From a bacterium (GTDB taxonomy: Bacteria; Patescibacteriota; CPR2; UBA1875; JAJYID01): DNA of 64,000 nucleotides. Position numbers and translations under genes: made by a program. Position 1 is the stretch's first letter, and every line of letters begins with the position of its first letter. Shown here in pieces: positions 1,997 to 37,133 of the stretch. The stretch covers positions 26,125 to 90,124 of the forward strand of contig JAJYID010000002.1 of the NCBI GenBank assembly GCA_021790235.1, read 5' to 3'. The notes beneath the pieces are model-generated. The model ran no database searches, had not been told where the DNA came from, and saw nothing but the letters and a program-made list of their open reading frames with translations.

Positions 1997-3405
1997 AACT
2001 TGACTGTATATCTTGAGAGTATCGAATCTTTGGCTCCTAAGTTTGAAAAAAAGAAAATATCACCATTATCGGAAGAATAAAATGGTATCTCTCCTGCAAT
2101 TGACTGGCCAAGAGTAACTTGGTTTGTCTCGTCGAAATCCATAATAATGGCTTTACTACCTTTTTCACCCAGAATATGGCGCGAGTCATACCAAATCAAA
2201 TTTGAATAACCACTATCCGGCATAGAGTATTCAGTGCTTGATTTTTCAATCTCATCATTTTCAAAAACTTTAACTTTCCCGTCCCCTTGATATAATAAAC
2301 GTTCACCATCGGGAGACCATGAAAAATCTGAAACATTCTTAGAAAATGTAATCAGCATGTTTTTCCCATCCGTTTTAGTAATCAGATATAATGTATTATC
2401 CGCTGTTTTAAAGGCGACTTGTTGGCTCTGGAACTCAACCTTCGCTTCATAAGAAGGGCTCACGGGGATACTGTCAGCTAAAGTATTTTTGCCACTGAAA
2501 TCCCCGTTAGCTTGTATAAAAGATCTCTGTCCGGAGTTGTCTTTCACATAATAAATTTTTCCGTCATCAGCAAAAGTATAATATACCACTTGACTCTCTA
2601 AAGCCGGCGAAACTTTCCTAGTTCCCAGATCTATATTCATTACCAAGCCTCCTGACAAACCATACAAAAGACTGCTATTAGCCGGGTCAAATCGCAATTG
2701 ATCAAATTTCACAGGTGTGATTGAACTAAAATCTGTAAGAGTTTTTGAATCTGTATTTAAAATATAAATCACTTCCTTCCCGCTAACAATCCCGGAAAAA
2801 AGAATATATCTTTTATCATTTGACCAGTCTAAAAGTCTGGGATCTGTAATTTTCTGGTCTGGCGGCAAAGCAGCCGTATCAAGAATTATATTGCTTTGGC
2901 TAGTCGCATCATTAAAAACAGAAATTTTGTAGGAGTCATTCAGTTTAATCAAGAATATTTGAGACTTATTATCCAGTGAGGTCAAACTGTCGATTAGCGT
3001 GCCGGAAATATTTACTTTATCAATGGTTGGATTTTTAGGGAACATTAAAATATAGTTTGCCCAAGTCACCATTTCTGGCTCTATCGGAACATTTTTTTCC
3101 CACGAGTAGTATCCATCTTTTGTAAGTTTCAAATGATACTTATCCTTACCCAAGTTATCAATCTTAATTGAGAAAAACCCCGTTGTATGGGTAGTATCTT
3201 TTCCATTCAAGAAAATCTTAGCGCCGGTCGGCTTTGAGCTGATAATCAGCATGCCTGTCTTATGAAATGTAATACCATCGGCACCAATGCGTATGTTATA
3301 TCCTCTGGCAGATAAAATGAAAAAAAGACTCAAAACAATAAATGTTATAGCTGCCAAAGGGTAGATTAAAAACCAATATATTTTTCGCCGTTCAACCTTA
3401 ATCAC
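1993..3405 (-). CDS. membrane-anchored PEGA-domain protein with beta-propeller-like C-terminal region
   Basis: An N-terminal TM helix is followed by IISSKPTGAKIFLNGKDTTHTT, which is PEGA-like. The rest is a long repetitive beta-rich region with WSPDGERLLY, reminiscent of TolB/WD-like blades. Confidence 0.6.
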   Translation of the reverse strand: MIKVERRKIYWFLIYPLAAITFIVLSLFFILSARGYNIRIGADGITFHKTGMLIISSKPTGAKIFLNGKDTTHTTGFFSIKIDNLGKDKYHLKLTKDGYYSWEKNVPIEPEMVTWANYILMFPKNPTIDKVNISGTLIDSLTSLDNKSQIFLIKLNDSYKISVFNDATSQSNIILDTAALPPDQKITDPRLLDWSNDKRYILFSGIVSGKEVIYILNTDSKTLTDFSSITPVKFDQLRFDPANSSLLYGLSGGLVMNIDLGTRKVSPALESQVVYYTFADDGKIYYVKDNSGQRSFIQANGDFSGKNTLADSIPVSPSYEAKVEFQSQQVAFKTADNTLYLITKTDGKNMLITFSKNVSDFSWSPDGERLLYQGDGKVKVFENDEIEKSSTEYSMPDSGYSNLIWYDSRHILGEKGSKAIIMDFDETNQVTLGQSIAGEIPFYSSDNGDIFFFSNLGAKDSILSRYTVKF

Positions 3406-3536
3406 AAAGATAATTATACATTTTCCAGTATGATTTGTAAATGTGAGACCACCATAAAAATTTTAGAAAATAAATCTATATCAGTTGATAAACATATGTG
3501 TTATAATCAGTCCTGTTTTAATAGGAATCTTATTAA

Positions 3537-4796
3537 ATGTCTAAGCTTCAGATCAACGGTCCGGTCAGACTAAATGGGACGGTCAAGATAAGCGGCTCGA
3601 AAAATGCCGCTCTTCCTATCATCGCCGCAACCCTTTTGACTCGGGGTAAAAATACAATTGAAAATGTGCCTGATATCACCGATATTCGTAATCTTTTAAA
3701 AATCGTCGAAAAACTCGGCGGGAAAACTAAATTTGACCATAATACGCTCGAAATTGATAACAGCTTGATTAACGGCCATGATCCTGACAAGGACCTAGTG
3801 AGAAAGATTCGCGCCTCGGTACTTCTTCTCGGACCACTCCTCGCCAGAAATAAAAAGATAAAAATGTCCGCGCCGGGAGGATGTTTTATCGGGAATAGAC
3901 CTCTCGATGATATTTTTGATATGCTCGAACAGCTCGGCGCAACGATAAAAGAAGAAGGGGAGATATATAGTTTTAATGTTAAATCTCTAAAAGGTGCTAA
4001 CATTACCTTGCGACATATGAGTGTAACAGCCACAGAGAATGTCATCATGGCGGCAGTGATGGCTGAAGGGAGGACAGTTATTCGCCTGGCAGCCTGTGAA
4101 CCGCATGTTCAAGATTTATGCAGATTTCTAAACAAAATGGGAGCGAAAATCTCCGGAATCGGCACAAATGAACTGAAAATAGAAGGTGTCAAAGAACTAA
4201 AACCCGTAAAGTATAAAATAGTTTCCGATGAGATAGAAGCAGCCACATACATCATAGCGGCCGCAGCGACAGGCAGTGAGATCACGATAAAAAATATTGA
4301 AACTTCTACCATTGAATATTCAATACTCTCAAAGTTTAAAGAAGCCGGCGTAATTTTGGAGATAGGCAAAGATAATATTCAAGTCAAAAGAAGTACCCGT
4401 ATCGTACCGGTTAAGAAACTCTGGACTGCTCCTTGCCCGCATTTTCCAAGTGATCTCCAAGCTCCCTTTGCTGTTCTAATGACTCAGTCAGACGGTTCAA
4501 CCCTAATTCATGAAACTATGTATGAAGGACGGCTGAATTATATTAAAGAATTAAAGAGGATGGGTGCAAATGCCTCTATACTTGACCCGCATCGAGCGAT
4601 TATAATAGGACCAGCCACTCTTTACGGTAAAAAAATTTCAAGCTTAGACTTAAGAGCCGGAGCCACTTTGATTATCGCGGCCATGGTTGCAAACGGTCAG
4701 AGTGAAATTGCGAATGCTGAAATAATTGACAGGGGCTATGAAAATATTGTAGAAAAGCTCCAGAAACTTGGAGTTCAAATAGAGAGGATTAACTAA
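3537..4796 (+). CDS. murA: UDP-N-acetylglucosamine 1-carboxyvinyltransferase
   Basis: 419-aa ORF. The N-terminus INGPVRLNGTVKISGSKNAALPIIAATLL and the overall length are typical of MurA. Confidence 0.95.
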   Translation: MSKLQINGPVRLNGTVKISGSKNAALPIIAATLLTRGKNTIENVPDITDIRNLLKIVEKLGGKTKFDHNTLEIDNSLINGHDPDKDLVRKIRASVLLLGPLLARNKKIKMSAPGGCFIGNRPLDDIFDMLEQLGATIKEEGEIYSFNVKSLKGANITLRHMSVTATENVIMAAVMAEGRTVIRLAACEPHVQDLCRFLNKMGAKISGIGTNELKIEGVKELKPVKYKIVSDEIEAATYIIAAAATGSEITIKNIETSTIEYSILSKFKEAGVILEIGKDNIQVKRSTRIVPVKKLWTAPCPHFPSDLQAPFAVLMTQSDGSTLIHETMYEGRLNYIKELKRMGANASILDPHRAIIIGPATLYGKKISSLDLRAGATLIIAAMVANGQSEIANAEIIDRGYENIVEKLQKLGVQIERIN

Positions 4797-5797
4797 TGCT
4801 ACAAAACAGAATAGGAATAGACCTAGGCACGGCCAATGTACTCGTTTATGTTCCCAAGAAGGGAATAGTTATAAACGAACCTTCAGTTGTGGCCGTAAGC
4901 GAAGACAATAGAGTACTGGCGGTTGGAGAAGAGGCTAAAGAAATGGTCGGCCGAACTCCGGAGTCAATCACTGCTTACCGTCCGCTTCGAGATGGAGTAA
5001 TCGCCGACTACCGCGTCACCGAGTCTATGATCCGCCACTTTATCAATAAAGTTTCCGGTGGTGTAAGACTTTTTCGTCCTGTAGTAATGATTAGTGTTCC
5101 GGCCGGCGCCACATCTACCGAAAAAAGAGCGGTAATAGACGCCACTAAACAAGCCGGAGCCAAAGCTGCATATATCATTCCGGAACCAATCGCGGCAGCC
5201 CTCGGCGCAGAAATACCTATAGACACACCAGCCGGAAATCTAATAGTCGATATCGGTGGGGGAACTACTGAAGTATCAATATTATCACTTGGCGGAATAG
5301 TCGCTTCGAGCTCTGTAAGAGTCGGGGGAGACAAGCTTGATCAGGCGATTTCTGACTATATTCGCAAAAAATACGGTCTCGCTGTCGGCGATAAAACTGC
5401 AGAAGAAATAAAGATAGCTATCGGGAGCGCCGTACCTCTAAAGAAAGTGACAGAATATGAGATTAGAGGCAGAGATATGCTTCAAGGTTTACCGAAGACT
5501 ATTACCGTTAATTCAGCTGAAATTACAGAAGCTTTGCAGGTCCAGCTTGAGAAAATCATTTTGTCAATCCGAAGTGTCCTCGAAAAAACTCCTCCGGAAC
5601 TGGCGAGCGATGTTCTGGACCGTGGTATGATTATGACCGGCGGCAGTTCCCGGCTTAAAAATCTGGATAAGCTGATTTCAAAAGCTACTGGGGTAGCCGT
5701 CGCTATTGCTGACGAATCGCATTTATGCGTAGCCAAAGGCACCGGCATGGCCCTCGAAAACCTCGACGACTACAAAAAGAGTTCCCTCTGGAAATAA
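4796..5797 (+). CDS. mreB: rod shape-determining protein MreB
   Basis: Actin-fold motifs IGIDLGTANVLVYV and LIVDIGGGTTEVSILSLGG are present. The start overlaps the murA stop. Confidence 0.95.
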   Translation: MLQNRIGIDLGTANVLVYVPKKGIVINEPSVVAVSEDNRVLAVGEEAKEMVGRTPESITAYRPLRDGVIADYRVTESMIRHFINKVSGGVRLFRPVVMISVPAGATSTEKRAVIDATKQAGAKAAYIIPEPIAAALGAEIPIDTPAGNLIVDIGGGTTEVSILSLGGIVASSSVRVGGDKLDQAISDYIRKKYGLAVGDKTAEEIKIAIGSAVPLKKVTEYEIRGRDMLQGLPKTITVNSAEITEALQVQLEKIILSIRSVLEKTPPELASDVLDRGMIMTGGSSRLKNLDKLISKATGVAVAIADESHLCVAKGTGMALENLDDYKKSSLWK

Positions 5798-8301: not shown

Positions 8302-8655
8302 ATGACTGACGAAAAATGGGAAGACTTAAAAGAAAATATTAGAGAAAAGTTTAAGGTGCTGGGAGAAAAAACAGAGCCTGACATTATAACGGATGACATC
8401 GGAAATAAAATAAAGGGTGAGAAAGATATCATTATTTTCGAGGGTCCAACTGGAAAAATGGAGGTGACTAAAACTAAGCGACCGGTAATTTTGGATAAAA
8501 AATCTCATTATCATAAAACTCAAGCCGGCAAAGCCTTAATAGAATATATCGTCTCAGATACAGAGTTTACAAACAAGATTGAAGTGTTCACTTGGGATAC
8601 GATCGCAAACGATTGGAAAGAGTTCGACACCCGGGGCGAAAACATAAGTTTCTAA
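8302..8655 (+). CDS. hypothetical protein
   Basis: 117-aa ORF in a coding-like context with no recognisable motif. Confidence 0.45.
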   Translation: MTDEKWEDLKENIREKFKVLGEKTEPDIITDDIGNKIKGEKDIIIFEGPTGKMEVTKTKRPVILDKKSHYHKTQAGKALIEYIVSDTEFTNKIEVFTWDTIANDWKEFDTRGENISF

Positions 8656-8751: not shown

Positions 8752-8858
8752 TATTTTTGTTATTTTTTATTTCTTAGTTTTTAATTTTCATTGAATTAAT
8801 TTTTAACATTGGATTATTGATTTATTTACCGGAAATTGTGAATTGAAAATTTTTATCA

Positions 8859-8899
8859 GGGATTCTCCCACTCACCATTAGTGTGGCGGTCGAAATGGC
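8859..8899 (-). repeat. hairpin repeat, GTCATyCCGAG family
   Basis: The rc reads GCCATTTCGACCGCCACACTAATGGTGAGTGGGAGAATCCC. It aligns terminus to terminus with the copies at 34578 and 35221. Confidence 0.55.
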
Positions 8900-9002
8900 A
8901 ATCTGTAACTGTACCTTTTATAAACAGGTAAAATTAGACAAAAGATGTTAAAATGAAAGATAATGGAATTGAAATTAGTTTAAATAATAAACAGAGGAAA
9001 AA

Positions 9003-9503
9003 ATGAAAAATCCAAACCAAAGAGTAGCAATATTTATAGACGTGCAAAACTTATATTATTCAGCTAGAGCTTTATATGAGAAGAAAGTAAACTTCGGAGA
9101 AATCTTGAAGATAGGAACAGCCGACCGTCAGCTCATCCGTGCTATCGCCTATACTATCCGAGCTGAGTCACCGGAAGAGCAAACATTTTTCGATGCTTTG
9201 GGAAAGATGGGATTTGAGGTCAAGACAAAAGACCTGCAAACCTTTGCCGGCGGACACAAAAAAGGCGACTGGGATGTAGGTATAGCCGTAGATATGCTGA
9301 AAATGGCGTCCAAACTCGATGCTGTTATTCTATGTTCAGGCGACGGTGACTTTGCAGACCTTCTGCACCACACAAAGGCGGAAGGATGCCGGGCCGAAGT
9401 TATCTCATTCGGCCGAAGCACTTCGCAGAAATTAATAGATGAAACAGACGACTTCACCGATCTGGACCAGATAAAACAGAAAGTACTATTAAATAAAAAA
9501 TAA
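9003..9503 (+). CDS. NYN domain (LabA-like) protein
   Basis: Motifs VAIFIDVQNLYYS, GDWDVGIAVDM and ILCSGDGDF match the acidic active-site pattern of NYN/LabA nucleases. Confidence 0.8.
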   Translation: MKNPNQRVAIFIDVQNLYYSARALYEKKVNFGEILKIGTADRQLIRAIAYTIRAESPEEQTFFDALGKMGFEVKTKDLQTFAGGHKKGDWDVGIAVDMLKMASKLDAVILCSGDGDFADLLHHTKAEGCRAEVISFGRSTSQKLIDETDDFTDLDQIKQKVLLNKK

Positions 9504-12528: not shown

Positions 12529-12602
12529 TCGGGAGTAGCCAAGTGGTAAGGCAACGGGTTTTGGTCCCGTGATCGCAGGTTCGAGTCCTGCCTCCCGAAC
12601 CA
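12529..12602 (+). tRNA. tRNA-Gln(TTG), CCA encoded
   Basis: TCGGGAGTAGCCAAGTGGTAAGGCAACGGGTTTTGGTCCCGTGATCGCAGGTTCGAGTCCTGCCTCCCGAACCA. It has a U1-A72 acceptor, anticodon loop TTTTGGT and T-loop GTTCGAG. Confidence 0.9.
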
Positions 12603-12686
12603 AAACGAGCGCATGTAGCGCTCGACATGTCTATAGGTAAATACATTCCTCGAGAATATATTTAATGGGTCTTTTTAATTTAAGTC

Positions 12687-14817: not shown

Positions 14818-14877
14818 CAACTCTATCGTCAAATTTGACATGTAAAGATTCATATTAGAATAGTAAATAGTGCTATA

Positions 14878-14960
14878 GTGTTCTCGAGCGGAGTGCTGAA
14901 CCAATAAGAGCACCAAAGGTGAGCGTAATACCTATGCCGTTAAGAATTAGAGCCCAACTG
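14878..14960 (+). repeat. decayed direct copy of tRNA-Gln 3' end region (R1)
   Basis: GTGTTCTCGAGCGGAGTGCTGAACCAATAAGAGCACC...TAAGAATTAGAGCCCAACTG aligns with R2 (16697-16779), and more weakly with 12578-12645. Confidence 0.6.
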
Positions 14961-16561: not shown

Positions 16562-16696
16562 TTATTCACTTTCCTTTTGAAGTTAAGTTAATAGCTTTAA
16601 TAAAAAATATTATAACATCTTTTTGCAGTGTCCCAAATGTCAAAAATAGTCTATCACTGTACCAGATTGTGCCATTTTATGGTAATATTGCCCTAA

Positions 16697-16779
16697 GGTT
16701 CTAGGGCGGAAAGCTGAACCAATATGAGCGCCTATTGCGCTCGACGTGCCTAGTAGATTAATAAGATCAGAACCAACTG
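16697..16779 (+). repeat. direct copy of tRNA-Gln 3' end plus downstream hairpin (R2)
   Basis: GGTTCTAGGGCGGAAAGCTGAACCAATATGAGCGCCTATTGCGCTCGACGTGCCTAGTAG compared with 12578-: GGTTCGAGTCCTGCCTCCCGAACCAAAACGAGCGCATGTAGCGCTCGACATGTCTATAGG. Confidence 0.7.
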
Positions 16780-33123: not shown

Positions 33124-33184
33124 AATTTAAAGTCAGCAAATCACATAGGTTCCCGCCTTTGTGGGAATAATAGGAGAAAAACCA

Positions 33185-34552
33185 ATGTTCAAGGTTGCCT
33201 TGGTCGGACGGCCGAATGTCGGCAAAAGTTCGATATACAACCGAATTATAGGTAAAAAACAAGCCATTACCACTGATGTTCCCGGTACCACGCGTGACTG
33301 GAATGAGGAAATCGTTGAGCTGGAAGGTGGGGTTTTTGATCTTGCCGACACTGCAGGCATAGAAAAGCATGCCAAAGAAGAGTTAAAAAAGAAAGTTAAA
33401 GACCAATTTGACCAAAACATCGAATCGGTTGATTTAATATTTTTTGTCGTCGATGCTTCAACTGGAATTACTTCGGAAGATCAAAGCATTACCGATTATT
33501 TAAGAAAGTTGAAAAAAGAAGTTTCGCTAGTCGTAAATAAAACCGATTTAGCCAAAAGCCAATCCGAGATAACAGAGTTTTATAAACTTGGTTTTGGCAA
33601 GCCAGTGCAAGTTTCAGCCAAAAGAAAAACAGGTACTAATCAGATTATTAAAGCTATGAAAGAATTTGCTAGCGAGACTAACAAGGTTCAACCGCACACA
33701 GGGCTGAACCTTACAAAGCAAAAAGTGCCTGCAATTCAGGTTTCTATCCTTGGGCGGCCAAATGCCGGAAAGTCTTCCTTCCTAAACAAACTGATTAATG
33801 AGGAAAAGTTTATCGTCAGTGAAGTTCCCGGCACCACACGAGATGTGAACTCGACTGAAGTTGCATACAAAAATTATGAAATAATCTTTCTGGATACGGC
33901 CGGCCTGAGACGCCGAGGTAAAATAGGAAAGATGCCGGGTAAAAATCGTGAAGGAATAGTTGAAAAATTCTCGGCCGATAGAACAAAGGGAGCTTTGGAA
34001 GAATCAGATATCGCTATTTTAATCATTGATGCCACCGACGGCATCACTTCGCAAGACATGCACGTGGCCGGTTTTATAAAGGATGCAGGCAAAGGAGTGA
34101 TTATTGTAGTAAATAAGTGGGATTTAGCCGACAAAGGCTTCCAACATAGTTTTGACGAAGTTGAAAGCTTTACCCGGCTGGCTCGGTATAAATTTGAATT
34201 TTTGCCATACGCTCCTTTAATCTTTGTTTCATCTCAAACGGGCAAGAATGTGCAAAAAGTTTTAGATTTGATATTAGAAATTAAGGAAAAGAGAGAACAG
34301 AGAATTCCAACAGCAGAGTTGAATAATTTCTTAACTAAAATTTTATATACTAAGCCGCCGGTTTCAATCGACAAACACCAAGTGAATATAAAATATGCGA
34401 CACAAGTGGATACAAATCCTCCGTCATTTGTCTTTTTCGCAAACTACCCGGAGAAGGTGCATTTCTCATACCGGCGCTACCTCGAAAATCGCATTCGTGA
34501 AAACTGGGACTTTACCGGCACACCGATAAAAATCACCTTCAAAGCAAAATGA
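33185..34552 (+). CDS. der: ribosome biogenesis GTPase Der (EngA)
   Basis: Two G domains (GRPNVGKSS...DTAG; GRPNAGKSS...DTAG...NKWD) and a KH-like tail. The ATG at 33185 (MFKVALVG) is preferred. Confidence 0.95.
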   Translation: MFKVALVGRPNVGKSSIYNRIIGKKQAITTDVPGTTRDWNEEIVELEGGVFDLADTAGIEKHAKEELKKKVKDQFDQNIESVDLIFFVVDASTGITSEDQSITDYLRKLKKEVSLVVNKTDLAKSQSEITEFYKLGFGKPVQVSAKRKTGTNQIIKAMKEFASETNKVQPHTGLNLTKQKVPAIQVSILGRPNAGKSSFLNKLINEEKFIVSEVPGTTRDVNSTEVAYKNYEIIFLDTAGLRRRGKIGKMPGKNREGIVEKFSADRTKGALEESDIAILIIDATDGITSQDMHVAGFIKDAGKGVIIVVNKWDLADKGFQHSFDEVESFTRLARYKFEFLPYAPLIFVSSQTGKNVQKVLDLILEIKEKREQRIPTAELNNFLTKILYTKPPVSIDKHQVNIKYATQVDTNPPSFVFFANYPEKVHFSYRRYLENRIRENWDFTGTPIKITFKAK

Positions 34553-34577
34553 TTCGTGATACAAAAACTTCCTTAGT

Positions 34578-34615
34578 GTCATCCCGAGAGCAGCGATAGC
34601 GGAGCCGAGGGATCC
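34578..34615 (+). repeat. hairpin repeat, GTCATyCCGAG family
   Basis: GTCATCCCGAGAGCAGCGATAGCGGAGCCGAGGGATCC. Confidence 0.6.
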
Positions 34616-34624
34616 TTTTCCTTT

Positions 34625-34652
34625 CCTGTCGTTCTGAACTTGATTCAGAATC
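34625..34652 (+). repeat. hairpin repeat type B (CCTGTCG...TTCAGAATC)
   Basis: CCTGTCGTTCTGAACTTGATTCAGAATC has a perfect TTCTGAA/TTCAGAA stem. A related copy lies at 55822-55858. Confidence 0.55.
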
Positions 34653-34710
34653 TATATAGCTGTTGATTCAATATTGATGATTTGTATCGAGCCCGGGAAG
34701 TACTACAGAC

Positions 34711-34758
34711 AGCACCTGGTTATAACCTCGAGGTGAATTAGACGCCCCCGAGAACCGG
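34711..34758 (+). repeat. copy X3 of the tRNA-3'-end-like repeat
   Basis: AGCACCTGGTTATAACCTCGAGGTGAATTAGACGCCCCCGAGAACCGG aligns with 41121-41166, AGCACCTGGTTCGAGTAAGTGCCGATTACGCCCACCAGAAAACCGG. Confidence 0.5.
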
Positions 34759-34956
34759 GATCAGTCCTTCTGGGGAGATGTCTTTGTCAGGAGTATCTTC
34801 TTCGAGGATCTGGAAGCAAAGGGCTTCGGGACAAGGCAGAGCATGCTGGAACCAGGAGAATCCCGAGAAAGAGAAGGATTCACGATCAGGGAAGTACAAC
34901 TCCTAAGCGAGGATGAATTCGAGCAGCTTCTGTTCGACTGGGCATGGATCTAGTGA
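34726..34956 (+). pseudogene. GC-rich gene remnant without a start codon
   Basis: Open frame PRGELDAPENRDQSFWGDVFVRSIFFEDLEAKGFGTRQSMLEPGESREREGFTIREVQLLSEDEFEQLLFDWAWI-stop. A TAA lies directly upstream, there is no start or RBS, and the GC content is visibly higher than the flanks. Confidence 0.35.
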
Positions 34957-35059
34957 GGTCATCCCCCTAGAGCGGTAAAGAATAGCAATACGGAAATTGC
35001 GGTTCTTCTGAGCCGCTTTTTCCTTTGTTAGGGAACTGTTTTGGTCTATAATAATTCTT

Positions 35060-35686
35060 ATGAATGTAAAAACTTTAATAGTCGGGCTTGGGAATCCCGG
35101 CAGCAAATACGAGAAAACCAGACACAATGCCGGATTTATAGTGCTAGATTCTTTGTGTAATGATTTTAAATTTGAGAAAAAATTTAATGCGGAAATTTGC
35201 AAAGTAATTCAAAAAGGAAAGGGATTCCTCGACTCGTCGCTCCATGAAGTCGCTCGGAATGACAGAGAAGAAGCTGGTAAAATTATCTTCTTGAAACCAC
35301 AAACATTTATGAATCTATCCGGCAAAGCCGTGAAATCATTTGCCGATTTTTACAAGGTAAGCCCGAAGAACATCTGGGTTATCCATGACGACATTGATAT
35401 CCCCTTTGGTGAAATAAGAATTAAGGAAAACGGAAGCTCGGCCGGACATAAGGGCATCCAATCAATCATTGATAATCTGGGAACAGAAAATTTCTGGAGA
35501 TTTAGAATTGGTATAAAAAATGAGAAGCTGGGACAAATCGAAACAGAGGATTTCGTGCTTCAAAGATTTTGTTCTGAAGAAGAAAAAGTGTTATCGGAGA
35601 TTATTGGGAAATGCCGAAATGAAATAGAAAAGTCAATTGAAAGAGGCTTTCCTGAAAGAAAAATTACGAGTATAAAAAAATTCTAA
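35060..35686 (+). CDS. pth: peptidyl-tRNA hydrolase carrying an in-frame repeat-derived insertion
   Basis: LIVGLGNPGSKYEKTRHNAGF, FLKPQTFMNLSGKAV and HDDIDIPFG are Pth motifs. About 20 extra residues (KGFLDSSLHEVARNDREEAG) sit between them. Confidence 0.9.
   Translation: MNVKTLIVGLGNPGSKYEKTRHNAGFIVLDSLCNDFKFEKKFNAEICKVIQKGKGFLDSSLHEVARNDREEAGKIIFLKPQTFMNLSGKAVKSFADFYKVSPKNIWVIHDDIDIPFGEIRIKENGSSAGHKGIQSIIDNLGTENFWRFRIGIKNEKLGQIETEDFVLQRFCSEEEKVLSEIIGKCRNEIEKSIERGFPERKITSIKKF
35221..35263 (-). repeat. hairpin repeat, GTCATyCCGAG family, inside pth
   Basis: The rc reads GTCATTCCGAGCGACTTCATGGAGCGACGAGTCGAGGAATCCC. The stems are ATTCC/GGAAT and CGAC/GTCG. Confidence 0.65.
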
Positions 35687-36044: not shown

Positions 36045-37133
36045 ATGATAAAAAATAGAAAAGAACAAATATATATTCTCGCTCTCGATATGGCCTTAAA
36101 CACTTTCGGTTTTGAGAGGTTAAAGAAAATAAAACAAAGCGGACTGAGTTTTGAGGAAGTTTGGGAAATGCCCGGAGAACAACTGGAACAGAAGCTCGGT
36201 AAATATGACTTTATTGAAAAATTGATCAAGGAAAGGGGGAAAATAGACCCAGATAGGGAATACGGGAAACTGGAAAAACAAAAAATAAGTTTTACTACTA
36301 TCTATGACGAGGATTACCCTAAAAATTTAAAAGAAATTTTTTCACCTCCTGTTGTTCTTTATTATAAAGGCGATTTAAATGTCTTAAATGAAGTTTGCTT
36401 GGCAGTAGTAGGTTCGAGAAAATTCACAACATACGGAAAAAACGTGGCAGAAAAGGTTGTATACAGTCTGGCTGAAAGCGGATTTACAATAGTCAGCGGG
36501 ATGGCTCTCGGGATTGATACTTTCGCCCATACTTATGCATTAAATGCCAAAGGTAGCACGGTTGCCGTGCTCGGCTGCGGACTTGACCATCCTTATCCTT
36601 CATCAAATGCAAACCTTTTCCGGCAAATCATAGACTCCGGCGGACTGGCGCTCAGCGAATACATGCCAGGGAAACCGCCCCTTCCACAGCATTTTCCTGC
36701 TAGAAATAGGATTATTTCCGGCCTTTCTAAGGGTATTTTAATAATAGAAGCAGGTATAAAGTCAGGTGCTCTAATAACCGCGAGAGACGGATTTGAACAA
36801 AACAAGGACATTTTTGCCGTGCCTGGCACAATCTTTGGAGAATCATCAAGCGGCACAAATCAGCTTCTGAAAATGGGAGCAAACCTAGTCACGAGCTCGG
36901 AAGATATTATTGAATATTACGGTTACAAAACTAAACCTAAAAAGGTGATGAAACCTGCAAACAACAAAGAAAAAGCTATTTTTGAAGCTTTAAAAGATGA
37001 AAAAATGCATGTCGATAAAATCATTAAAGAAAGCGGACTTGAAGCCCAAAAGGTTATTTCGAGCTTGACACTAATGGAGATAAAAGGTAAGGTAAAAAAC
37101 TTAGGAGGTATGGTTTACACGTTAAATTCCTAA
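36045..37133 (+). CDS. dprA: DNA-processing protein DprA (Smf)
   Basis: Has VVGSRKFTTYG, GMALGIDTFAHTYAL and PARNRIISGLS, plus a C-terminal winged helix. Confidence 0.9.
   Translation: MIKNRKEQIYILALDMALNTFGFERLKKIKQSGLSFEEVWEMPGEQLEQKLGKYDFIEKLIKERGKIDPDREYGKLEKQKISFTTIYDEDYPKNLKEIFSPPVVLYYKGDLNVLNEVCLAVVGSRKFTTYGKNVAEKVVYSLAESGFTIVSGMALGIDTFAHTYALNAKGSTVAVLGCGLDHPYPSSNANLFRQIIDSGGLALSEYMPGKPPLPQHFPARNRIISGLSKGILIIEAGIKSGALITARDGFEQNKDIFAVPGTIFGESSSGTNQLLKMGANLVTSSEDIIEYYGYKTKPKKVMKPANNKEKAIFEALKDEKMHVDKIIKESGLEAQKVISSLTLMEIKGKVKNLGGMVYTLNS

Follow-up and report, generated by a model that had tools for sequence, protein, structure and literature searches.

The element treated here is a hairpin repeat that is read in frame inside pth, the gene for peptidyl-tRNA hydrolase, in a 64-kb stretch of DNA from a Patescibacteria-like bacterium (the window, meaning the whole stretch that was analysed). 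Its closest described relatives are the CGTC-tagged repetitive extragenic palindromes (REPs) and the target repeats of the Ssn nucleases. In 2013, Di Nocera, De Gregorio and Rocco equated the CGTC-tagged REPs (CGTC-1 to -4) with the dRS3 repeat and with RPE-6 and RPE-4 of Rickettsia conorii, and reported such repeats in frame within genes for known proteins of R. conorii as well as of other species; at that time, as they noted, repeats of this type had no known enzyme of their own (PMC3733652). Such an enzyme has since been described for the Neisseria NTS (CGTCATTCCCGCGMAVGCGGGAATCYRG), of which the dRS3 repeat forms part. The GIY-YIG nuclease SsnA (94 aa) binds to NTS and cleaves the DNA a few nucleotides upstream of it; it acts on single-strand DNA only and does not bind RNA (Chenal et al. 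2025, PMC11893778). Cleavage depends above all on the three bases (GTC) that precede the palindrome, and binding on the C that follows it; the main text of that paper does not contain the words 'in-frame', 'intragenic' or 'open reading' (PMC11893778).

Among the TGTC/CGTC-tagged palindromic repeats, the superfamily of Neisseria dRS3/NTS, Rickettsia RPE-4/-6 and the Ssn-related motifs (SRMs), the element in pth belongs to the long form (41-48 nt). The explanation that we favour, with a probability of roughly 85%, is that a solo copy was fixed at a permissive loop of Pth and has been tolerated since. The presence of in-frame CGTC-type repeats in loops of functional proteins is already established (Di Nocera 2013, PMC3733652); what is new is the candidate-phylum (WS5/Patescibacteria-like) host, the long-form variant with its association with ssn genes, and the repeated use of one hairpin tip of Pth. 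A literature search, from which subscription journals were largely outside, returned no paper tying such repeats, or their in-frame insertion, to Patescibacteria.

Rickettsia palindromic elements (RPE-1 and relatives) are reportedly found in frame in genes (Ogata et al. 2000 and 2002), and in-frame palindromic repeats in protein loops are said to go back to Ogata et al. 2000. RPE-1 is about 100-150 bp long. The window element works like these elements in its mode of insertion: in both cases a palindromic repeat lies in frame in a housekeeping gene of a small genome, forms a surface loop that fold and function allow, and is patchy among orthologues, whereas RPE-1 is longer and the hosts here are uncultured candidate-phylum bacteria, not Rickettsia.

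A long-form TGTC-tagged repeat inside pth

The features of the window on which the argument is built are the following.

35060-35686, + strand: pth, peptidyl-tRNA hydrolase (Pth1 family), intact, 208 aa; from the listing of open reading frames (ORFs)
35220-35266, - strand: solo long-form ('e-type') TGTC-tagged hairpin repeat (Ssn-related motif) in pth; full-length match to covariance model R1, 57.9 bits, E=1.6e-14
35210-35278, + strand: codons 51-73 of Pth, a lineage-specific loop at the beta2-beta3 hairpin tip (the repeat plus about 19 nt of extra codons); from the AlphaFold2 model and the orthologue alignment
34575-34617, + strand: intergenic long-form copy, 23 nt past the der stop codon; R1, 39.7 bits, E=3.3e-9
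34628-34652, + strand: short 25-nt superfamily member GTCGTTCTGAACTTGATTCAGAATC, adjoining the preceding copy; from a regular-expression hairpin scan
8858-8902, - strand: degenerate intergenic long-form copy; R1, 23 bits, E=2.3e-4

Model R1 was built from seven intergenic copies of other genomes and contains neither a pth copy nor a copy from the window. When the 64-kb window was scanned with filters off, the three long-form sites were significant and nothing else was found below E=2. This independent model bears out the proposal of the first-pass annotation that the three sites belong to one family. The 43-mer on which that proposal was built lies exactly at 35221-35263, inside the Pth ORF, although the element at this site is 47 nt long and not 43. 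Both intergenic copies had been taken to be reversed relative to the pth copy, which holds for 34575-34617, whereas 8858-8902 has the same orientation as the pth copy. The pth copy has the consensus TCTGTCAT...ATCCCT and its opposite strand is translated in frame as K54-GFLDSSLHEVARND-R69; pth is the sole gene in the window that carries a member of the family.

As for the intergenic copies, 8858-8902 sits between ORFs 8302-8655 and 9003-9503, has GCCAT in place of GTCAT and one outer-stem mismatch, and is closest to the GACCGA...GAGTGGAGG subtype of the relatives' loci L014 and L015. The region 34603-34657, which holds the 3' end of the copy at 34575-34617 and its short neighbour, is 96% identical to the stretch after der in the relative's locus L007, and the short repeat itself differs by one base from L007 2686-2710 (GTCATTCTGAACTTGATTCAGAATC). 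Compensatory stem variants of this 25-nt repeat (CCGGA/TCCGG and CCTGAA/TTCAGG) are present in relatives.

All copies have a (T/C)GTC tag, a stem starting with AT and a C-rich tail, and in the seven seed copies of R1 the GTCAT tag is invariant and is found at one end only. The loci of relatives contain a 24-nt subtype (GTCATTCCCGCGAAGGCGGGAATC), a 23-nt subtype (GTCATTCTGGCTTGGCCAGAATC), the 25-nt subtype, a 45-nt form and the 41-48-nt long form. The last of these, the class of the pth copy, has the structure GTCATYCC-GA-S-CGAC-[small inner hairpin]-CGAG-S'-GA-GGRATCCCT, that is, a stem of five Watson-Crick pairs followed by a tandem G.A/A.G and a further covarying pair, and then an interior of 24-26 nt with its own small hairpin.

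The evidence for this structure was drawn from covariation, because single-sequence folding was no better than that of shuffled sequences. In 143 distinct long-form copies from many phyla the outer stem was 99.3% paired, with compensatory switches at pair 9-118 (CG in 80, TA in 58) and pair 14-113 (GC in 122, CG in 19). None of 500 shuffles reached the observed covariation and slid controls were only 12-64% paired, although the pairs were counted in an alignment fitted to the model, a bias towards the structure for which the slid controls compensate only in part. The stem starts with A-T (AU in 137 of 142 copies) followed by T-A (UA in 141 of 142). Wobble is nearly absent at the covarying pairs (3/142 at pair 9-118; alignment A4, loci L018-L117), and the conserved tandem G.A/A.G is placed between two covarying outer-stem pairs. 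The scarcity of wobble fits pairing as DNA, and the stem pattern fits recognition as folded single-strand DNA.

The long form is widespread. An exact-pattern scan with one genome per species gave at least 120 stretches, and the matches listed include Omnitrophota, Gemmatimonadota, Acidobacteriota, Gammaproteobacteria, Planctomycetota, Bacteroidales, Anaerolineales, WOR-3 and many Patescibacteria lineages. The model gave 181 matches, many of them as opposed pairs, across 728 kb of loci from many phyla. The copies avoid long stop-free frames: 30 of 150 lie inside such frames, against 104.5 expected at random positions.

These properties agree with those of the CGTC-tagged REPs in the one-sided CGTC tag (with TGTC and CCTC as accepted variants), the A-T/T-A start of the stem and the short unpaired C-rich tail, and also in the occurrence of multiple copies, mainly intergenic and often in opposed pairs, with a minority inside genes. 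The CGTC-tagged REPs, however, have a stem of 8-9 bp and a loop of 4-5 nt, as do the short members (34628-34652 and those in the relatives' pth), whereas the window element has 47 nt and a long interior. In addition, the long-form tail is CCT and not CCA, and the candidate phylum of the host was not among the five phyla of the 2013 list.

Long-form copies beside ssn nuclease genes

We searched the ORFs in the scanned loci with SsnA from a Neisseria gonorrhoeae record, in which ssnA lies amid nine NTS copies within 1.4 kb, and found ssn homologues directly beside long-form copies. These ORFs (93-121 aa) match the Pfam GIY-YIG domain with E-values of 4e-16 to 9e-14 and Neisseria SsnA with E=5e-23; they were assigned as ssn by these two homologies. 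In all of the six loci examined (L030, L138, L139, L073, L019 and L136, three of them from sister genomes) a long-form copy stands before ssn and an inverted copy after it, at distances of 2-60 nt from the ends of the gene. The ssn genes of the sister genomes were found because the DNA-pattern scan of genomes pointed there; a protein search with Neisseria SsnA returned only proteobacterial sequences among its best 120 matches and carries no information on candidate phyla.

Some of the ssn homologues tie in with Pth-bearing relatives. Locus L030 comes from assembly GCA_021796415.1, the genome that also encodes the sister Pth P0002, and its copy at 5443-5485, immediately 5' of ssn, is identical at 39 of 43 positions to the pth copy of that genome, with which it shares the inner hairpin TTCGCGGAGCGA. 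The ssn homologue P0245 is on the same 635,771-bp contig as the sister Pth P0004. The ssn homologue P0263 is on a 287,129-bp contig, and the contig of Pth P0017 ('candidate division WS5') is also 287,129 bp long.

The genes around ssn vary. In L138, ssn (3001-3291) is directly upstream of comEC (DUF4131/Competence/Lactamase_B; 3361-5662) and also beside a phage-integrase/XerC-like gene (1960-2904); in L139, ssn (3001-3282) is directly upstream of the gene for a comEA-like HHH_3 protein (3387-3824); and in L030, ssn (5496-5786) is placed between hrcA and grpE. This variety of settings among three related genomes suggests that the repeat-ssn-repeat unit moves, and the competence-gene neighbours echo the role in transformation shown in Neisseria.

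The long form thus shares with NTS and the SRMs the flanking of ssn by copies on both sides (six loci) and the presence of GTC directly 5' and of C directly 3' of the palindrome (GTC-ATTCC...GGAAT-C in the window copy). In fact, the 24-nt subtype found in the pth of relatives is literally the dRS3/NTS sequence. The arrangement also resembles that of the GTAG REPs with their RAYT genes (REPtrons), where inverted hairpin copies flank the gene of a presumed single-strand DNA partner and solo copies are scattered, occasionally inside genes. In contrast to the GTAG tag and the IS200/IS605-type tyrosine transposase of that system, the repeats described here have a TGTC tag and a GIY-YIG nuclease, and Ssn is not known to act in transposition.

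A lineage-specific loop at one hairpin tip of Pth

As the first-pass annotation had it, the frame and the downstream Pth motifs are intact. The 208-aa product is identical to database protein P0001, to which PF01195 is assigned, and it belongs to Pth1 by the family profile together with the conserved catalytic His and Asn/Asp positions; N12, H22, N85, D110 and H130 are invariant (25-113 Pth homologues aligned). The AlphaFold2 model (113-sequence alignment; pLDDT, the predicted local confidence score, 92.2; pTM, the predicted template-modelling score, 0.89) was compared with the PDB using Foldseek, and the top 48 listed matches were all bacterial Pth, with E-values down to 1.5e-21 and, for the best matches, template-modelling scores of 0.86-0.90 normalised on the target; by both programs the window protein has the Pth fold. 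Note that residue 131 is Lys (GHKG) throughout the clade, which is unrelated to the insert, while remoter homologues keep Asn; we take this position to be Asn114 of Escherichia coli (GHNG). The identical protein is encoded on contigs of three independent assemblies (ENA ERZ27233565, ENA ERZ27236928 and Logan SRR13170411) and NCBI is likewise listed as a source of it, so that the insert is not an assembly artefact.

The repeat encodes 16 residues (K54-R69), and the whole extra loop is about 22 residues, neither of which agrees with the insertion of 20 residues first proposed. The segment from the conserved Cys to LKPQTF has 30 residues in the window Pth, 6-11 in 87 of 113 homologues, and 8 in the closest insert-free orthologues, P0005 and P0007 (71-72% identical). 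Because 47 is not a multiple of three, the frame is kept by some 19 additional bases, the origin of which is unclear. No target-site duplication was established, the filled and empty sites being too diverged and the repeat length not being a multiple of three. Two sister genomes have the orthologous insert, and their pth copies (P0002 and P0003) share the long-form repeat with 40 of 43 positions identical. Since the closest orthologues are insert-free, the insert is lineage-specific, with the long-form copy common only to P0002, P0003 and the window.

The same site is filled in other ways in relatives. A second repeat lies upstream in the sister pth genes, of the NTS type in P0003 and of the 45-nt form in P0002; P0004 and P0008 have a CTGG-type copy together with an oppositely oriented NTS-type copy, and P0006 has the CTGG-type copy alone, so that fillings occur in both orientations across relatives. 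The long loops of close relatives that were checked at the DNA level are all superfamily repeats, not loops of equal length and unrelated origin. Six other Patescibacteria Pth proteins (P0042, P0043, P0065, P0071, P0096 and P0118) have segments of 29-44 residues at the same tip with no obvious CGTC-type peptide. In a neighbour-joining tree of Pth reconstructed without the insert columns (a single gene, no support values), insert-bearing and insert-free proteins were interspersed, and repeats have been gained or lost at this single tip at least twice, probably more often.

In the AlphaFold2 model, residues 51-73 form a coil of low confidence (pLDDT 55-64) without secondary structure between strands 44-50 and 74-80. 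The proposal that a repeat had been absorbed as a surface loop of Pth is supported by this coil, by the orthologue alignment and by the copies in other genes. Superfamily repeats lie in frame in the relatives' RluB (at two sites in L004 and at two others in L009), in ScpA of L004, and in Der of L014 and L009, where the repeat of L009 gives the peptide GFLHSSLLDVSRNN; the window's own RluB, ScpA and Der orthologues are without these repeats. In the P0003 genome a class-IV aminotransferase has the long form in frame, as do PriA, transketolase and TsaD of other Patescibacteria. In the same orientation and frame as in pth, the long form yields a peptide ending VARND[KE] or VSRNN in unrelated proteins, and the VARND-type peptide is found in the following.

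L009, 7757-9184: Der
L032, 678-1781: TsaD
L063, 1007-3388: PriA
L093, 5420-7072: transketolase

In the window, pth lies between der (33161-34552) and dprA (36045-37133), and the order der-pth-dprA-topA is kept in relatives. The DNA 5' of pth at 34659-35034 is GC-richer and non-coding, and it is 86% identical to L007 3237-3619. At 3234-3530, L007 has an intact 98-aa ORF of unknown function, the corresponding frame of which is broken in the window, and a second ORF of L007 (2898-3215, 105 aa) is wholly missing from the window, with the edge of the gap adjoining the short repeat at 34628-34652. The small ORFs between der and pth in L007, L009, L014 and L015 were considered as ssn and ruled out, as they have no GIY-YIG domain. 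An empty ssn site was also sought by way of the genes neighbouring ssn in relatives (hrcA, grpE, comEC, comEA and others), none of which is present in the window. Elsewhere in the window, three direct repeats (12577-12633, 14866-14914 and 16684-16752) resemble the 3' end of the tRNA at 12529-12599, and the generic repeat finder placed a hairpin GAGCGC...GCGCTC after each of them; this is the pattern expected of attachment sites, with small islands integrated beside a tRNA gene.

Persistence of the repeat in pth

According to the explanation that we favour, one copy together with about 19 extra bases would have been fixed in the pth of the common ancestor of the organisms carrying the window, P0002 and P0003. 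Pth is essential in bacteria where tested, so that only harmless insertions persist; this one would have survived by lying at a solvent-exposed beta2-beta3 tip, with a net length that is a multiple of three and in a stop-free orientation and frame. The present-day product of the repeat would be a disordered loop of about 22 residues, most likely without a role for the enzyme, and we infer that the loop is neutral. The insertion itself may have been a single-strand DNA process involving an Ssn nuclease, by analogy with REP/RAYT, as suggested by the repeat-ssn-repeat architecture and the single-strand specificity of SsnA. The window copy looks like a relic, because its inner 4-bp hairpin is broken (TCAT/GCGA, compared with the intact TCGC/GCGA of the sister pth copies), there are only four members in 64 kb, and there is no ssn in the window.

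Several results weigh against this explanation. The folding energy of the window pth copy was no better than that of shuffled sequences, either as DNA (z=+0.98) or as RNA (z=+0.05 and +0.74), and 'hairpin' is therefore a property of the family, the pth copy being decayed. Neither a GIY-YIG regular expression nor phmmer (with a consensus and the real Neisseria SsnA as queries) turned up an ssn gene in the 64-kb window or loci L001-L016. Loci L001-L003 are from the same genome, and none of the best 120 homologues lies on a 322,722-bp contig, the length of the contig of the window; the window organism's possession of a cognate nuclease is therefore unproven. The SRM string HGTCWYN(0-2)YYVSBRHN(0-5)WNVSBRGN(0-2)RNCYNB has 0 matches in the window, compared with five in all in the relatives (only in L007, L009 and L014) and six in the Neisseria ssnA locus; the long form misses it because its interior is too long, and is thus an unlisted variant of the SRM motif class. 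Moreover, since removal of the 47 nt alone shifts the frame, the original event is not reconstructable. Finally, between the window and the sisters the repeat is 93% identical, compared with 76% for the rest of pth, and 86-93% compared with 57-59% at third codon positions (binomial p about 0.005-0.02), an excess that rests on 42 aligned bases and that a purely neutral relic does not predict. It could be explained either by constraint on a DNA site or by correction of the copy from repeats elsewhere.

The first of these would mean that selection acts on the DNA: the antisense strand would carry an Ssn site marking der-pth-dprA for single-strand cleavage in transformation or repair, as NTS does for SsnA, and the loop would be the price. 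Apart from the conservation, third codon positions included, this is favoured by the GTC and C critical for SsnA, which are intact in the window copy, by ssn genes beside comEC or a comEA-like gene in two relatives, and by the rarity of G-T wobble at pair 9-118, which fits pairing of DNA and not of RNA. However, the excess covers few bases, gene conversion from other copies or a later insertion would give the same signal, the inner hairpin of the window copy is broken, no ssn was found in the window, and many relatives have no repeat at the pth site at all. We consider this explanation unlikely. A bolder version of it is likewise doubtful: hairpins inside essential genes would be kept as single-strand DNA marks at which Ssn cuts incoming or displaced strands and so controls the replacement of housekeeping alleles by transformation, and the filling of one Pth tip by four subtypes would then reflect targeted insertion beside existing hairpins rather than mere tolerance.

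Selection could instead act on the protein, the loop having been recruited, e.g., for an extra contact with tRNA or the ribosome, and kept for its peptide. The peptide GFLDSSL(H/R)EV(A/T)RND is nearly identical in three lineages, and the similar peptide in Der of L009 might be seen in the same light. Yet the same peptide words appear in unrelated proteins from the same DNA in the same frame, the loop is unstructured in the AlphaFold2 model, and in sister lineages the site is either empty or occupied by repeat peptides of unrelated sequence. Di Nocera et al. likewise took the spread of such insertions over many unrelated proteins as an argument against functional constraint (PMC3733652), and recruitment of the loop appears very unlikely.

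A regulatory hairpin in the pth mRNA, affecting translation, pausing or stability, seems to us highly improbable. Although Di Nocera et al. suggest that many intergenic repeats of the class are transcribed and may act as RNA (PMC3733652), the sense-strand RNA in pth folds only weakly (-12.2 kcal/mol, z=+0.74), copies within genes are found in either orientation, RNA is not bound by SsnA (PMC11893778), and the covarying pairs avoid G-U. Searches of Rfam at gathering thresholds and at permissive E-values gave tRNAs and noise only, so that no known RNA family is involved.

That the similarity is due to chance or to a chimeric assembly, and the loop an ordinary lineage-specific extension, might be read from the generic repeat finder, which did not report the family on the whole window (the copies differ by interior indels), and from the 11-mer GTCATYCCGAG, which was not enriched there (3 matches compared with 1.1 expected), but this is already refuted by the R1 match to the pth copy, the 39/43 identity to the repeat flanking ssn in a sister genome, and the same protein in three independent assemblies and at NCBI. 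An intein, an intron and a miniature inverted-repeat transposable element were also considered and dropped, the element being 47 nt long with no terminal inverted repeats beyond the hairpin and no product of its own.

The in-frame long-form repeat in pth extends selfish palindromic repeats as protein loops in housekeeping genes from mainly Rickettsia to small-genome candidate-phylum bacteria. With regard to the enzyme, none was known in 2013, Ssn was tied to the short NTS in 2025, and now a longer, unlisted form is found to bracket ssn in Patescibacteria-like bacteria, Omnitrophota and others. Peptide words in proteins from metagenome bins such as GFLDSSL..VARND, DSRLRGND, CHSREGGNL and DSGQARMT are derived from repeats and should not be taken for lineage-specific functional motifs; a VARND-type peptide could mislead annotators as a shared motif. 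The beta2-beta3 tip of Pth is a naturally validated permissive insertion site, and the pairs of filled and empty sites in close relatives are material for tracing the spread of the repeat.

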